Origin: Escherichia coli
GTDB taxonomy: Bacteria > Pseudomonadota > Gammaproteobacteria > Enterobacterales > Enterobacteriaceae
Assembly (NCBI RefSeq): GCF_030013595.1
Contig: NZ_CP122768.1
Direction: 5' to 3' (one strand)
DNA length: 64,000 bases
The translations under genes were made by a program, and so were the position numbers. The first letter of the stretch is position 1. Each line of letters opens with the position of its first letter. This document shows, one piece after another, positions 57,950 to 63,603 of this stretch. Below the pieces are notes generated by a model. The model was not told the origin of the DNA. It ran no database searches and saw nothing but the letters and a program-made list of their open reading frames with translations.

Positions 57950-58207
57950 ATGCAGACTCAATTAAAGGTTAAAGGCGGTTATAGTCATTTTTTCTTCGCC
58001 AATATTGAAGTCTCACAAAGAGAGTCAAATGGCGGTTTGGTTGTCGTTAGGGATGTTAATATACCTATTACAACAACAACTCTCTCTCTGTTAGAGAATT
58101 ACGCTGTAGGGCAGGTGTTGACGTTAGAACAAAAGAATGGCGATTTTTTTGATGTGTATTACGTTGGAACTGATGGGAATAACTTTCAGTTTTCAACGCA
58201 CTGCTAA
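57950..58207 (+). CDS. Hypothetical phage protein (85 aa); its 3' end is duplicated at 63183
   Basis: AAGGAG lies 6 nt upstream of the ATG. A stem-loop AAGGCCCTG-TGAG-CAGGGCCTT (58214..58235) follows. Confidence 0.55.
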   Translation: MQTQLKVKGGYSHFFFANIEVSQRESNGGLVVVRDVNIPITTTTLSLLENYAVGQVLTLEQKNGDFFDVYYVGTDGNNFQFSTHC

Positions 58208-58354
58208 TTTATCAAGGCCCTGTGAGCAGGGCCTTCGAAAGCCTACTAAAGTCTGTTTCATAGAGAGAGTTATTTGCGATTAAAAAGGTATTTGGTCACG
58301 ACCAGCACGATAGAGAATACATCTTTCAAAGTACCGCCCATATAAAACAGTTAC
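58115..58354 (+). repeat. Left copy of a ~240-bp imperfect direct repeat bracketing the accessory cassette
   Basis: Aligns along its whole length with 63183..63418, roughly four-fifths identical by eye, e.g. CTAAAGTCTGTTTCATAGAGAGAGTTA and AAAAAGGTATTTGGTCACGACCA. Confidence 0.85.
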
Positions 58355-58649
58355 ATATGCACTTGATGACTAAGCTGGCACCAGGTTAACACCATGCGCC
58401 AGCTTGAAGGAGACTTCAGTTATTGGTTTCTGAGGAAAGCGATTCTTGAAAGGGTCATTTGCGTCTGGCAGTCGACCATTTTCTTGACTTCAGCATCTGT
58501 TCCTTTCTTGACTTCAGCATCTGTTCCCTGCATTGAAACTTTACCGCACATAGCATCCTTAGTTTTGATCCACTGGCGCTGAGAAGGCAGCAACTTGAAC
58601 CGCCCCGGAAATCCTGGAGACTAAACTCCCTGAGAAAGAGGTAAACAGG

Positions 58650-58976
58650 ATGACTAAAAATACTCGTTTTTCCCCCGAAGTCCGTCAGCGGGCGATTCGT
58701 ATGGTTCTGGAAAGTCAGGATGAATATGACTCACAGTGGGCGGCAATTTGTTCCATTGCCCCAAAGATTGGCTGTACGCCGGAGACTCTGCGTGTCTGGG
58801 TTCGCCAGCATGAGCGGGATACCGGGGGCGGTGATGGTGGGCTCACCAGCGCTGAACGTCAGCGTCTGAAAGAGCTGGAACGTGAAAATCGTGAACTGCG
58901 CCGCAGTAACGATATCCTTCGCCAGGCTTCCGCTTATTTTGCGAAGGCGGAGTTCGACCGCCTCTGGAAAAAATGA
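58650..58976 (+). CDS. IS629 OrfA (HTH transposase N-terminal part)
   Basis: 108 aa, [33 protein letters not shown]..., recognised as IS629/IS1203 OrfA. An A-run (GGAAAAAATG) sits at its end for -1 frameshifting. Confidence 0.92.
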
Positions 58977-59863
58977 TGCCACTGCTGGATAAGCTGCGTG
59001 AGCAGTACGGGGTCGGACCGGTATGTAGCGAACTGCATATTGCCCCGTCAACGTATTACCATTGTCAGCAACAGCGACATCATCCGGATAAACGCAGTGC
59101 CCGTGCGCAGCACGATGACTGGCTGAAGAAAGAGATACAGCGCGTATACGATGAAAATCACCAGGTATACGGTGTGCGTAAAGTCTGGCGTCAGTTGTTA
59201 CGGGAAGGTATCAGAGTGGCCAGATGCACTGTGGCACGTCTCATGGCAGTTATGGGACTTGCCGGTGTTCTCCGGGGTAAAAAGGTCCGCACTACCGTCA
59301 GCCGGAAAGCCGTTGCCGCAGGCGACCGCGTAAACCGTCAGTTCGTGGCAGAACGACCTGACCAGCTGTGGGTGGCTGATTTTACTTACGTCAGCACATG
59401 GCAGGGCTTCGTCTATGTGGCGTTTATCATTGATGTGTTTGCCGGATACATCGTGGGGTGGCGGGTCTCATCGTCTATGGAAACGACATTCGTGCTGGAT
59501 GCGCTGGAGCAGGCGTTGTGGGCCCGTCGTCCGTCTGGCACCATCCATCACAGCGATAAAGGCTCTCAGTATGTGTCACTGGCCTATACGGAGCGACTAA
59601 AAGAAGCCGGATTACTGGCATCAACAGGGAGTACAGGCGACTCGTATGACAACGCGATGGCTGAGAGCATCAATGGTCTTTACAAAGCGGAGGTAATACA
59701 CCGTAAGAGCTGGAAAAAACGTGCAGAAGTGGAACTGGCCACACTAACGTGGGTGGACTGGTATAACAATCGACGATTGCTGGGAAGGCTGGGCCATACT
59801 CCTCCGGCAGAAGCAGAAAAAGCTTATTATGCTTCCATCGGAAACGATGATCTGGCAGCCTGA
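58973..59863 (+). CDS. IS629 OrfB (DDE catalytic domain)
   Basis: 296 aa with the DDE motif context (WVADFTYV..., HSDKGSQY..., [10 protein letters not shown]). Confidence 0.92.
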
Positions 59864-61436
59864 GTTCACAGATAAAACACTCTCCAGGAAACCCGGGGCG
59901 GTTCAACTCTTTTTTCTTCGCCGGGGTTAACTTGCTCCAGACGGTATTCAAATCAGAGTCAGCATTTGCAAATGCCATTCGGGACTGATCAAGGCTTTCA
60001 GATTTTTGCGGCTGAAGTTGTGCCTGCCTCTCTTTTTGCTTCTCCGCCTCATACCTGGCCTGTTCCTGTGCCCTGAGTTGCACCTGTTGTTCCGCTTCAA
60101 TTTGACTCTGTTGGGCATCCTTAGCCTGCTGGATTTTCTGCTGCTCAACGATCGGGTTGATAATGGAAAGCGATGTCAGTAAAGCGGCGCCCACTGATAT
60201 CGGATTATCAGAAGAGGTTTTTACAAAAACGTTTTTCTGATCGTCGGTCGCCTGCACGGTGTAGGTGATACGCCTTGAAAAGGCGTTTGCGTTGTTCTCC
60301 AAAAACAGATTTTCCATTTGCTTATCGAGATTACGATTAAAATTCTTTCTGTAAGCATCTGAAAGCTGGACGTACTCGTTCGCAGGTAGAGTCATCGTCA
60401 CGGTCCCTTCACAAGTTTTCATTGTGCTGCCCGTGTCACTTGATGTTGTGGAGATTTCAGAGACGGCTAGTTTGATCTTGTCCAGTGTGCTTCGTTTGGT
60501 CTGATTAGTGACATCAGGGTATTTATCGACCTGTTCAGAGAGTCCTTCATAAGCAGATTTTTTTAATAAATCCATGAGAGCTGATTGGGTCATTTCCGAA
60601 GAACAACCGATCTCATCTTTTTTGTTATCACAGCCTGTAAGGGCAATGGCGAGTAAGAGTACTGAGTATTTTAATCTCATGAATTCCCTTTAGAGTAAGG
60701 ATTGGTTTTTAAGACGCGGTCTGTAATCAGTTCCGAGAGCTACAGTAAACAACGCTGAGCACTGAACGCATCACAGGCAAGGTAAAAGGTGATATCGGCA
60801 AAGGCTGTGAAACCTTTAATTCAACAGATGGGAACGGTATGCACAGGATCCTGTAACGACGCTCCCAAAACTGGAAACCTGTAAGGCATGTTTTCGCTGC
60901 TGAACTTAATATACGAACCTGCACTATCATGAACATATTTTATATCGTTATACCCCGAGTGATTGTGCCCGGCAATGGATAGTGTCCTGGAGGAATTATT
61001 TCTAATGTAAAAGGAAGATATTTAATTTCGATGTGGGATTATTACCTGTCTATAAGAACAATGACTTTATCTGGCAGTAAGCAGACATCTATTAGCTTAC
61101 TGAAGGGGGGCTGTGATTTGACCATTAACGGCATGAGATATATTGTCTATTGGTGATTGTTCTGAGGCCGATATCACGTTAACGACCAAGTAAAATAACA
61201 TGAAAAATTATTTATTAATGATTGCCAGCATTAAATGTAGTGATACCTCATTAGCAGGGTGCTCCGCAATGACTGCGATGAACTAAAAAATCAGTCATAA
61301 CCATGAAAAAAACAAGTGTATCAGCGAAATTAAATCTGGTGAAAGCATTTAATTACTTGTTAATGACGCAATAAAAACATACTATGGAAATGTAACAGCT
61401 AATCTACAGTTCTTGTCAATAGGGGCGCACAAGAAA

Positions 61437-62027
61437 ATGTTAAATGAATTTAAGGAAAAGCTACTATCCGACGATATCCGCGATGTCTACCAACGATACC
61501 TTTTAGGACATGACATCTGGTATTTTCGGGAACAAAAAAAATCAATAACCTTTGCTAAAGATTATGATGAGTTTAAGCTATATATGTCTAAGAAGCTTGA
61601 AATTCATGTAAATAATATTGCAATTGTTGGAAGTGCTAAGATGGGATTCAGCTTGAGCCCTGATAAAAATTATCGAACATTTAACGATGAGTCAGATATA
61701 GACTTGGTTTTAGTATCCGACAGAATTTATAAATCTTCCTGGATGGCATTTATTGAATTACAATCAAAGAATTATTTGCCTGTATATGCTCCTGTAGCTA
61801 AAAATATTTTCAAAGGATTCGTGTCATTGAAGGAGTTAGATATTAGAGTCGATTTTTTTAATAAATGGTCCCGTAACGTTGAACCATTAAAAAAAGACAT
61901 TCAAACTATTTTTGGAATACCTAACGACATCAACTACAGAATTTATGACTCTTGGGAGTCCGTTGAACGCTATCACATAGCTGGGTTGAATAGTCTAAAA
62001 GATAAGTTACAAGGACAATTGATATGA
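61437..62027 (+). CDS. Putative Pol-beta-superfamily nucleotidyltransferase-fold protein (196 aa from ATG 61437; ORF open from TTG 61413)
   Basis: IAIVGSAKMGFSLSPDKNYRTFNDESDIDLVLVS shows a G-S...D-x-D arrangement. The gene is AT-rich, and its stop overlaps the next start (ATGA at 62024). Confidence 0.55.
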   Translation: MLNEFKEKLLSDDIRDVYQRYLLGHDIWYFREQKKSITFAKDYDEFKLYMSKKLEIHVNNIAIVGSAKMGFSLSPDKNYRTFNDESDIDLVLVSDRIYKSSWMAFIELQSKNYLPVYAPVAKNIFKGFVSLKELDIRVDFFNKWSRNVEPLKKDIQTIFGIPNDINYRIYDSWESVERYHIAGLNSLKDKLQGQLI

Positions 62028-63082
62028 GAGCTATTGATCTAATTAAAGTTGAATCGAAAGACATTAAATGGTTGACGGATAATTTGAAATCAGGTGTTAT
62101 TACAGTTGATAATTCATATCAGAGAAAATATATCTGGCAGCAAAAAGACCAAGTGGCCTTAATTGAGACAATATTAATTGGCTACCCAATCCCTGAGATT
62201 TACCTTTGGGCAAATAATACTGATCCTGACACTGGAGATACTAAATATTCAATTGTAGATGGACAGCAAAGGCTAACCACAATCCAGCGATATTTAAATG
62301 ATGAGTTTAAGTTAAGCAAAGCAGCTATAGATGATAAAGAAGCCGACTATAGTGGGAAAATTTTTTCAGAATTGTCGGCAGATAACAAACGTGATTTTTG
62401 GCGATACCAATTCTCATCCAGATTTATTAATGAATCATTGAGATATGATGAGATTGCAAAGTTATTTTTACGTCTAAATAGAACAAATACTACGTTAAAT
62501 CCTCAAGAACTTCGTAATGCTGAATTTAATGGCGAGTTTTTAAGATTAGCCGAAGAAATTGCACAAAATGAATTTTGGGATAATTATAAGATATTTACTC
62601 AGTCAGATATCCGTCGGATGCAAGACATTCAATTCATCAGCACATTATTGATTTTCTTACGAATGGGTATTGAGCAGGATAATACACAAAAATCAATTAA
62701 TCGAGTGTATGATCAATACAATGAGAATTACCCTGAGGCGACTGAGGACAGAATTATCTTTAACGAAGTGTTAAGGATCATATCTCAAATTATCAACAAT
62801 AAACAAGTATTAGAATCAGTTGTAAAGAAAAAAGGCCATTTGTATTTTATATTTGTGCTGGCATACTATTATTTACAGCTTAGTAAATCTAAGCTTGTTG
62901 ATATGAATGTTATTAGTTCAAAGCTCGAGGATTTTTTTAATATTTATGAGTTAAATGAACAAGATAACCCCCATCCACTGGTTGAGGAATATAGATTCCT
63001 CAGCCAAGAGGGTTCAAAGAAGAGTCATAACAGACAGCGTAGATTTGATATTTTGAAAGAATTTTGCTCTTTACATGATTAA
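62024..63082 (+). CDS. Stand-alone DUF262 (ParB/GmrS-like) protein, 352 aa, without a visible DUF1524/HNH module
   Basis: The N-terminal motifs YQRKYIWQQKDQVALIETILIGYPIPEIYLW and SIVDGQQRLTTIQRYL are the DUF262 signature. Confidence 0.7.
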   Translation: MRAIDLIKVESKDIKWLTDNLKSGVITVDNSYQRKYIWQQKDQVALIETILIGYPIPEIYLWANNTDPDTGDTKYSIVDGQQRLTTIQRYLNDEFKLSKAAIDDKEADYSGKIFSELSADNKRDFWRYQFSSRFINESLRYDEIAKLFLRLNRTNTTLNPQELRNAEFNGEFLRLAEEIAQNEFWDNYKIFTQSDIRRMQDIQFISTLLIFLRMGIEQDNTQKSINRVYDQYNENYPEATEDRIIFNEVLRIISQIINNKQVLESVVKKKGHLYFIFVLAYYYLQLSKSKLVDMNVISSKLEDFFNIYELNEQDNPHPLVEEYRFLSQEGSKKSHNRQRRFDILKEFCSLHD

Positions 63083-63093
63083 ATGACGAAAGT

Positions 63094-63124
63094 GGGTTGT
63101 TTATAAGAATTGAATAAACAACCC
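63094..63124 (+). terminator. Stem-loop terminator after the two-gene operon
   Basis: GGGTTGTTTAT-(9 nt)-ATAAACAACCC followed by ATCATTTTA, a weak T tract. Confidence 0.55.
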
Positions 63125-63182
63125 ATCATTTTAATGTACTCTGAATCCTCTCATTCTTAGTGAAATATTGTTTTTAGAACAC

Positions 63183-63418
63183 GTATTGACGTTAGAACAA
63201 AAAATAGATTTTTTTGTGATGTATTACGTTGGAGTTGATGGGATAATTATATGTTTTCAATACATTGTTAATTTATCAAGACCCTGCGACTAAGGTGTTC
63301 GAAAATCGACTAAAGTCTGTTTCATAGAGAGAGTTACTTGCGTTTAAAAAGGTATTTGGTCACGACCAACACGAGGCCGAATACCTCAGTTTAAGTACCG
63401 CTCATGTACAACAGTAAC
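63183..63418 (+). repeat. Right, decayed copy of the ~240-bp direct repeat
   Basis: It includes a degenerate copy of the last ~30 codons of the 57950..58207 ORF (LTLEQK...YYVG.DG) and its downstream region. Confidence 0.85.
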
Positions 63419-63603
63419 GTTTGCTGATAGTGTCGCATTATCTTGCAGAGGACGCAGGTTAAATAGAACAAGCATATGTACCTGGTTTTTGTAATATTGG
63501 GTATAACATATGCTTTATAGGAGCGCGCTCAATGACCAACCGAGAAAGAATCTCCTGACAGATACAGTTATTTTCACCCTCTCCATAACATAAGGGAGTT
63601 TTT

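Follow-up and report, generated by a model that had tools for sequence, protein, structure and literature searches.

What does an AT-rich pair of genes do inside a lambdoid prophage of Escherichia coli? The pair in question, ORF1 and ORF2, lies near the end of a 64,000-nucleotide stretch of contig NZ_CP122768.1 (assembly GCF_030013595.1; this whole stretch is referred to here as the window), and a sequence-only reading of the window had described it as a candidate anti-phage system, i.e., a nucleotidyltransferase (NTase)-fold protein next to a stand-alone DUF262 protein. We found that ORF1 and ORF2 are one unit that recurs across many phyla, often in operons with DNA methylases and in slots known for defence cargo. 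We consider it probable, with considerable room for doubt, that they form an obligate two-gene defence module which the prophage carries as cargo and which is directed at phages or other mobile elements. The features on which the argument rests are the following:

61437..62027, plus strand: ORF1, 196 amino acids (aa); start codon ATG at 61437, alternative start TTG at 61413
62024..63082, plus strand: ORF2, 352 aa
62024..62027, plus strand: ATGA overlap of the ORF1 stop (TGA) and the ORF2 start (ATG), with AAGGA 9 nt upstream of the ORF2 ATG

The coordinates, the shared strand and the ATGA overlap of the sequence-only reading all withstood a check of the sequence. The ATG at 61437 is the favoured ORF1 start, both from alignments with homologues and from the way RefSeq annotates a locus of 99.9% identity (E. 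coli HCP5S3_I2). The overlap and the AAGGA are consistent with translational coupling of the two genes, and a gap of -4 or similar separates them in most homologous loci.

Whether the two genes belong together was assessed from both sides. On the ORF1 side, a profile scan with one genome per species gave 80 loci from many phyla, and in 58 of these a relative of ORF2 follows ORF1 immediately in the same orientation (gap -140 to +36 nt). Three of the other 22 loci end at a contig edge and 19 lack ORF2 (most of these 19 hold longer ORF1 paralogues of 250-376 aa), leaving 58 of 77 assessable loci paired. On the ORF2 side, an independent survey of metagenomes, covering relatives of at least about 280 bits with enough upstream DNA, placed ORF1 directly upstream of all 23 orthologues (23/23); among the weaker hits only one (L125, 204 bits) had this arrangement, and the more distant metagenome DUF262 proteins never had ORF1 upstream. 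The pair is kept in Proteobacteria, Bacteroidota, Firmicutes, Actinobacteria, Acidobacteria, Cyanobacteria and Deinococcus, with reading frames that overlap or abut. ORF1 and ORF2 are thus one unit and their pairing is obligate, in line with the expectation that the two families would be neighbours in other genomes as well.

Many of the distant, nuclease-less DUF262 proteins in the metagenomes (L124-L181, 340-460 aa) are accompanied by a different, tightly linked downstream gene of ~210-360 aa, which suggests further two-gene DUF262 systems, be they PD-T4-2-like, Dazbog-like or new. A natural ORF1-ORF2 fusion in the phage contig L101, which could have been taken as a sign of a physical complex, was discounted as a probable assembly artefact, because it stems from homopolymer length differences relative to the near-identical contig L100.

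ORF2 is the more readily classified of the two proteins. Its sole Pfam match is GmrSD_N (DUF262), at 1e-24, and its best PADLOC match is NsnA, the sensor of the Menshen system, over nearly the full length (4.3e-41), followed by PD-T4-2_A (2.5e-19). Homologues from Bacillus, Clostridia, Bacteroidota and P2 prophages gave the same ranking. The protein comprises an N-terminal ParB/DUF262 NTPase domain (~residues 1-170) and an all-helical, ParBDB-like C-terminal half. The motifs QR...W, DGQQR and F..LN are intact and invariant across the family, and the helical half holds further invariant polar residues (R197, R198, D201, H272, Y274 and E322). No DUF1524/HNH (His-Me) nuclease domain was detected by Pfam, and ORF2 ends before such a domain; the earlier description of a DUF262 protein devoid of this nuclease was therefore correct. 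Membership in a known REBASE enzyme family was considered and rejected, as the PADLOC model REase_II PDLC03418 covers the DUF262 region only (E 1e-8 to 1e-12). Variants of ORF2 occur as well: orthologues in two Bacteroidota with unusually long C5 methylases have extra C-terminal sequence (~500 aa; L043 10603-12117 and L046 10591-12084), and a Variovorax orthologue has a DUF3606 domain (L006 8582-9832).

Is the pair, then, a known system? NsnA of Menshen consists of ParB-DUF262 and a helical ParBDB-type domain, spans ~350-385 aa and has no nuclease (PMC12065111), an architecture that ORF2 shares. However, the other Menshen components are missing. NsnB, an ABC/OLD-type ATPase (AAA_15 and DUF3696) encoded immediately downstream of NsnA, is absent, and 60.7-64 kb of the window holds no other ORF of at least 350 aa; directly after ORF2 come a hairpin and the cargo boundary, and among the 58 homologous loci the genes further downstream show no conservation. 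NsnC, which combines an inPIN-like N-terminal domain with a nuclease or toxin domain, is likewise absent at the locus and in homologous loci. Since neither NsnB nor NsnC accompanies the pair at this locus or at its homologues, the pair does not qualify as a Menshen system. It further differs in that the gene for the partner of ORF2, an NTase-like protein of 196 aa, precedes the ORF2 gene instead of following it, and in having a methylase-linked subtype (described below), of which we saw no report for Menshen in PMC12065111. The NsnA match and the lack of NsnB and NsnC could also be read as a decayed Menshen (NsnABC) remnant with an unrelated hypothetical gene as a chance neighbour, the two not working together. 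The conservation data effectively refute this reading: the arrangement is conserved across the phyla listed above, the pairing is reciprocal and both proteins have invariant motifs.

PD-T4-2 (Vassallo et al. 2022) likewise consists of two genes that include a nuclease-less DUF262 protein. Its partner is a HEPN protein, PF18735 (PMC10952713), whereas ORF1 matches neither PF18735 nor PD-T4-2_B, and the gene order also appears different. Dazbog (DzbAB), another two-gene, nuclease-less DUF262 system, responds to cytosine methylation of DNA and has the DUF262 protein as its first gene (10.1101/2022.08.27.505566); here the DUF262 gene is second, and no PADLOC Dzb model matches ORF1 or ORF2 (E <= 1). 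By analogy, the response of Dazbog to cytosine methylation echoes the C5-methylase linkage of our pair. GmrSD, BrxU and SspE have a DUF262 N-terminal domain with the QR, DGQQR and FxxxN motifs also found in ORF2, but theirs is followed by a C-terminal DUF1524/His-Me nuclease in the same polypeptide, which ORF2 lacks. Menshen, PD-T4-2, Dazbog and GmrSD were thus each rejected on partner or architecture, as were WonAB/GrwAB (PMC12137116), the GmrS/GmrSD doublets (PMC12373910) and PtuXYZ (PMC11980606). No name for an NTase-DUF262 pair was found in PADLOC v2 (2023), NCBIfam (2026), RefSeq product names or the open-access literature and bioRxiv, an absence that is not proof. Within PADLOC v2, NCBIfam and the searchable literature, then, the pair indeed belongs to no named system. 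The related statement that its architecture cannot be assigned to one needs qualification: ORF2 is specifically NsnA-type (DUF262 with ParBDB), so that the architecture does have relatives and amounts to a known sensor with a new partner.

That partner, ORF1, matched no Pfam or PADLOC model at E <= 1 except for a chance-level hit to DUF7074, had no NCBIfam match, and otherwise hit only an unannotated PHROG. An exhaustive profile search put its family at 1,544 clusters at 50% identity with E <= 1e-3 (875 with E <= 1e-10), and nearly all members are stand-alone proteins of 195-210 aa. Two motifs stand out, IVGSAKxGxS (residues 63-72) and SDIDL (residues 86-90). All 80 species examined share IVGSAKxGxS and D89 without exception, and 78 of them retain S86 and D87. 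The structural model of ORF1 is very confident (predicted local distance difference test score, pLDDT, 95.7) and has an alternating helix-strand topology, in which IVGS (63-66) follows strand 61-64 and D87-I-D89 opens strand 88-93. Pol-beta nucleotidyltransferases have this layout, with hG[GS] behind the first strand and [DE]h[DE]h opening the second, and ORF1 has both. The best structural matches of the model, though weak, are minimal nucleotidyltransferases (MNTs), namely the MNT antitoxins of HEPN-MNT systems (1no5, 8xeh, 7ae2, 5yep).

Other observations do not back this assignment. No conserved D/E that could be the third catalytic carboxylate lies at or around strand 128-130, residues 129-133 being variable in the 80 species, though this carboxylate could conceivably be supplied from elsewhere. 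Profile evidence for an NTase was non-significant in Pfam, in a comparison of the ORF1 family hidden Markov model with PDB sequences, and in hhalign comparisons with KNTase and a shallow KNTase family profile (for the NTase comparison profile, the fetched loci held no bona fide MNT genes and the last homologue search gave 11 fragments only). Compared with MNT/MntA of the HEPN-MNT type VII toxin-antitoxin systems and with KNTase, ORF1 has ~9 inserted residues separating GS from DxD, additional helices at both termini and no conserved third carboxylate, and its partner is not a HEPN protein. The fold-level guess of a Pol-beta-superfamily NTase in the sequence-only reading thus stands on the GS...SDxD layout, the near-invariant motif and the weak structural matches, and finds no backing in the profiles or in a third carboxylate. 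ORF1 is probably a very divergent Pol-beta/MNT-like nucleotidyltransferase-fold enzyme.

The likeness to MNT antitoxins brings in the main rival to a defence module, which we regard as unlikely: a type VII toxin-antitoxin-like addiction or abortive-infection module, in which ORF1 would be an MNT-type antitoxin that nucleotidylylates and silences ORF2, a toxin (a ParB/Srx-fold NTPase or nickase) that is released on infection. The gene order suits it, as the NTase gene comes first and the stop and start overlap, as is established for mntA-hepT operons (PMC7641770), and the invariant residues of the ORF2 helical half listed above could form a second active site. In addition, a deletion mutant of the Dazbog gene dzbB (the second, non-DUF262 gene) was unobtainable, possibly through toxicity (10.1101/2022.05.11.491447). 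However, ORF2 does not belong to the HEPN proteins and showed no nuclease fold, long ORF1 paralogues occur without a DUF262 partner, and a simple toxin-antitoxin pair leaves unexplained why the genes recur in operons with DNA methylases and Vsr endonucleases.

The longer ORF1 paralogues of the unpaired loci lie in other settings. In three loci (L064, L067 and L075, at ~9.9-10.7 kb), paralogues of 260-265 aa with the same IVGSAKxGxS...SDxD are encoded between HmaB (a DUF1156 adenine methylase) and HmaC (a DUF499 ATPase). None of these three matched a PADLOC model, and they may represent an unrecognised component, or embedded cargo, of Hma systems. Long paralogues adjoin defence genes elsewhere (L076 9932-15198, L070 6518-12601 and L074 9800-12020), either beside a pAgo-associated SIR2 (PADLOC Aga_SIR2, 3.8e-170), behind a Piwi-domain gene or ahead of the gene for a TIR-effector-like protein. 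Given these SIR2, Piwi and TIR settings, the ORF1 superfamily as a whole appears, from its genomic company, to be defence-associated.

What the pair acts upon is hinted at by its neighbours. For loci L012-L058 we scanned the genes closest to the pair, two per flank (148 genes), and used as a control 109 genes located >6.5 kb away in the same loci. The neighbours included 19 C5 DNA methylases, 4 N6/N4 methylases and 4 Vsr endonucleases, against no methylase among the 109 distal genes; integrases, Mrr, Schlafen, CHAT, a reverse transcriptase and several type II restriction enzymes were also among them. TIR and CHAT-TPR are further neighbours of the pair. In 16 of 58 loci a C5 methylase gene lies immediately upstream of ORF1 in the same orientation (gap -8 to +13 nt); these loci are mainly from Firmicutes, with two from Bacteroidota whose methylases differ in length. 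The arrangement also occurs in a Bacillus guaA-pbuG island and two phage contigs. One acidobacterial and one clostridial locus have instead an N6/N4 methylase gene that overlaps the ORF2 end. The recruitment of methylases has therefore involved more than one family and more than one position, and overall a methylase abuts the pair, either as C5 upstream or as N6/N4 downstream, in at least 18 of the 58 loci (about a third). Such operons point to DNA-directed, restriction-like action, and not to the signalling or modifying enzyme with a nucleotide-sensing effector that the sequence-only reading had proposed. In comparison with type II-like restriction-modification, the cognate methylase present in those loci (at least 18/58) is absent from the cassette in the window.

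The extent of that cassette could be read from other E. coli prophages:

61117..63148, plus strand: low-G+C cargo cassette

Homology to the prophage of E. coli ZH063 stops at 61116 and restarts at 63149, so that the mobile cargo is 61117-63148, which takes in the two genes and the hairpin together with ~320 nt of upstream DNA that belongs to the pair. Its flanks are common to 444 of 5,426 complete E. coli genomes, of which only 2 have this cargo. The slot lies between the replication genes and Q of the lambdoid prophage (the nin region), surrounded by a replicative helicase, an LprI-family lipoprotein, DUF1367/DUF1364 and antiterminator Q, and the comparison of flanks with other E. coli prophages upheld the view of this region as a variable cargo setting. 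In the same slot ZH063 has an alternative cargo gene (L092 5169-5867) for a 232-aa hypothetical protein with a weak PADLOC match to the DRT-associated transmembrane protein RTasTM (1.8e-5), with an ImmA/IrrE peptidase gene nearby, which is consistent with the slot holding defence-type cargo in other strains. P2 prophages carry a 49%-identical pair, on >100 contigs, in the GpA-GpQ slot (GpA to portal gene), the main defence hotspot of these prophages (PMC13586616). The pair was also found on 9 IMG/VR contigs, and many of its loci are chromosomal with no phage genes nearby.

The methylase operons and the presence of the pair on phage and prophage genomes, together with the fact that a nucleotidyltransferase could in principle decorate DNA, allow for a further reading, namely a DNA-modification or counter-defence module in which the pair, as an NTase-like enzyme and a ParB-like NTPase, would join the methylase in writing a modification that protects the element's own DNA. 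We hold this to be very unlikely. The nearest relatives of ORF2 in sequence and fold (NsnA, PD-T4-2_A, BrxU, SspE) are all defence sensors or restriction enzymes, the pair sits in slots known for defence cargo (PMC13586616), many loci are chromosomal and away from phage genes, and the stand-alone proteobacterial form has no methylase at all.

Taken together, the obligate pairing, the methylase linkage, the defence-slot context and an enzyme-like ORF1 with paralogues in Hma, pAgo-SIR2 and TIR loci lend the two-gene defence module its support, enough to make it the probable reading, though short of a firm one. From these we infer the roles of the two proteins. ORF2 would be the sensor, with its ParB/DUF262 NTPase and helical ParBDB-type DNA-binding domain, like NsnA and the N-terminal two-thirds of BrxU/SspE, and would read the state of DNA (its modification or methylation status, or a phage-specific feature) in a manner coupled to NTP binding and hydrolysis. 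ORF1 would be its dedicated enzymatic partner, most likely a divergent Pol-beta-type nucleotidyltransferase, which upon activation by ORF2 would act on invading DNA or on a host target. Where the two genes are linked to a methylase, as in many Firmicutes and some Bacteroidota as well as in at least one acidobacterial genome, they would serve as the 'restriction' half while the cognate methylase marks self DNA. In Proteobacteria, including the window, the pair is stand-alone, and would there be either type-IV-like or infection-triggered, or possibly reliant on a host methylase.

Several points weigh against such a defence module. Neither Pfam nor structural comparison revealed a recognisable nuclease or toxin domain in ORF1 or ORF2. 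The proteobacterial loci nearest the window never have an adjacent methylase, and the restriction-modification logic is therefore not directly transferable there; neither the cassette (61117-63148) nor the prophage annotated at the locus of 99.9% identity has a DNA methylase gene, and the defence reading does not account for the sparing of self DNA in a form that lacks one. Moreover, most methylase-linked loci belong to one Firmicutes-type clade, so that the independent methylase associations are few, roughly three or four. A bolder version of the defence module, which we consider quite unlikely, would turn the missing nuclease into its central feature: nuclease-free restriction, in which ORF2 would read methylation and direct ORF1 to nucleotidylylate invading DNA or its ends, with the cognate methylase protecting self in the three-gene form. 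This would amount to a new chemistry and to a new family of defence NTases present also in Hma, pAgo and TIR loci.

Within the window, two further features accompany the pair:

61357..61385, plus strand: candidate sigma-70 promoter (TTGTTA, 17 nt, TACTAT), ~50 nt upstream of the ORF1 ATG, with 8/12 consensus matches
63093..63125, plus strand: hairpin with a 12-bp perfect stem and a 9-nt loop, then a short U-tract, AUCAUUUUAAU

The hairpin has a folding energy of -16.4 kcal/mol (z = -3.6 versus shuffles) and is a probable intrinsic terminator of the pair; a consensus terminator scan did not call it, solely because of its 9-nt loop. The promoter is a candidate inferred from sequence alone. An Enterobacter pair (86% identical) has the same upstream layout (TTGTCA, 17 nt, TATTCT), with the remainder of its spacer unrelated. 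The number of sites in a consensus promoter scan was below chance expectation; none was convincing upstream of ORF1, and 61357-61385 was not called. An Rfam scan of the spacer and the pair gave no match. The intergenic spacer upstream of ORF1 spans 60681-61436 (756 bp, earlier put at ~730 bp) and has a G+C content of 0.386, as compared with 0.326 for the pair and 0.492 for the window. The AT-rich spacer, the low G+C of the pair relative to its surroundings (32.6% versus 49.2% for the window) and the stem-loop after it were accordingly all as the sequence-only reading had them, and the peptide motifs it quoted from ORF1 and ORF2 were all found in the sequence.

An imperfect direct repeat of ~230 bp (~80% identity; 58115-58355 and 63185-63420) flanks an IS3 element, the LprI gene and ORF1-ORF2, its left copy (58115-58355) spanning the 3' end of an ORF of 85 aa. 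Both copies of this repeat recur in the HCP5S3_I2 and ZH063 prophages, and the repeat may be a recombination boundary for cargo exchange in the nin-region slot. The IS3-family element (58596-59904; orfA 58650-58976 and orfB 58973-59863, in the usual frameshift arrangement) has inserted into the LprI-family gene (59670-60680, minus strand) at its 3' end, and IS-derived sequence takes the place of the C-terminus of that gene. The HCP5S3_I2 prophage, otherwise 99.9% identical, does not have this insertion and has another IS3-family element just past the ORF2 hairpin.

Sensors of the DUF262/ParB type recur throughout bacterial immunity (GmrSD, BrxU, SspE, Menshen, PD-T4-2, Dazbog), and how their nuclease-less versions stop phages is still an open question. 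With a sensor of known type and a logic resembling that of known DUF262 systems, the pair is not a new category of system; by sequence comparison, its novelty lies in the ORF1-type partner on an NsnA-type sensor, not in the sensor class. It adds a widespread and strictly coupled partner family (~1,500 clusters at 50% identity) that has no Pfam, NCBIfam or PADLOC model, and its methylase-linked subtype offers a genetically tractable self/non-self logic. If active, the pair would be a minimal two-protein system (196 and 352 aa) for the control of a separate enzyme by a DUF262 sensor, would indicate that restriction-modification-like systems can work without a recognisable nuclease, and would improve the annotation of defence in P2-like and lambdoid prophages of E. 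coli.

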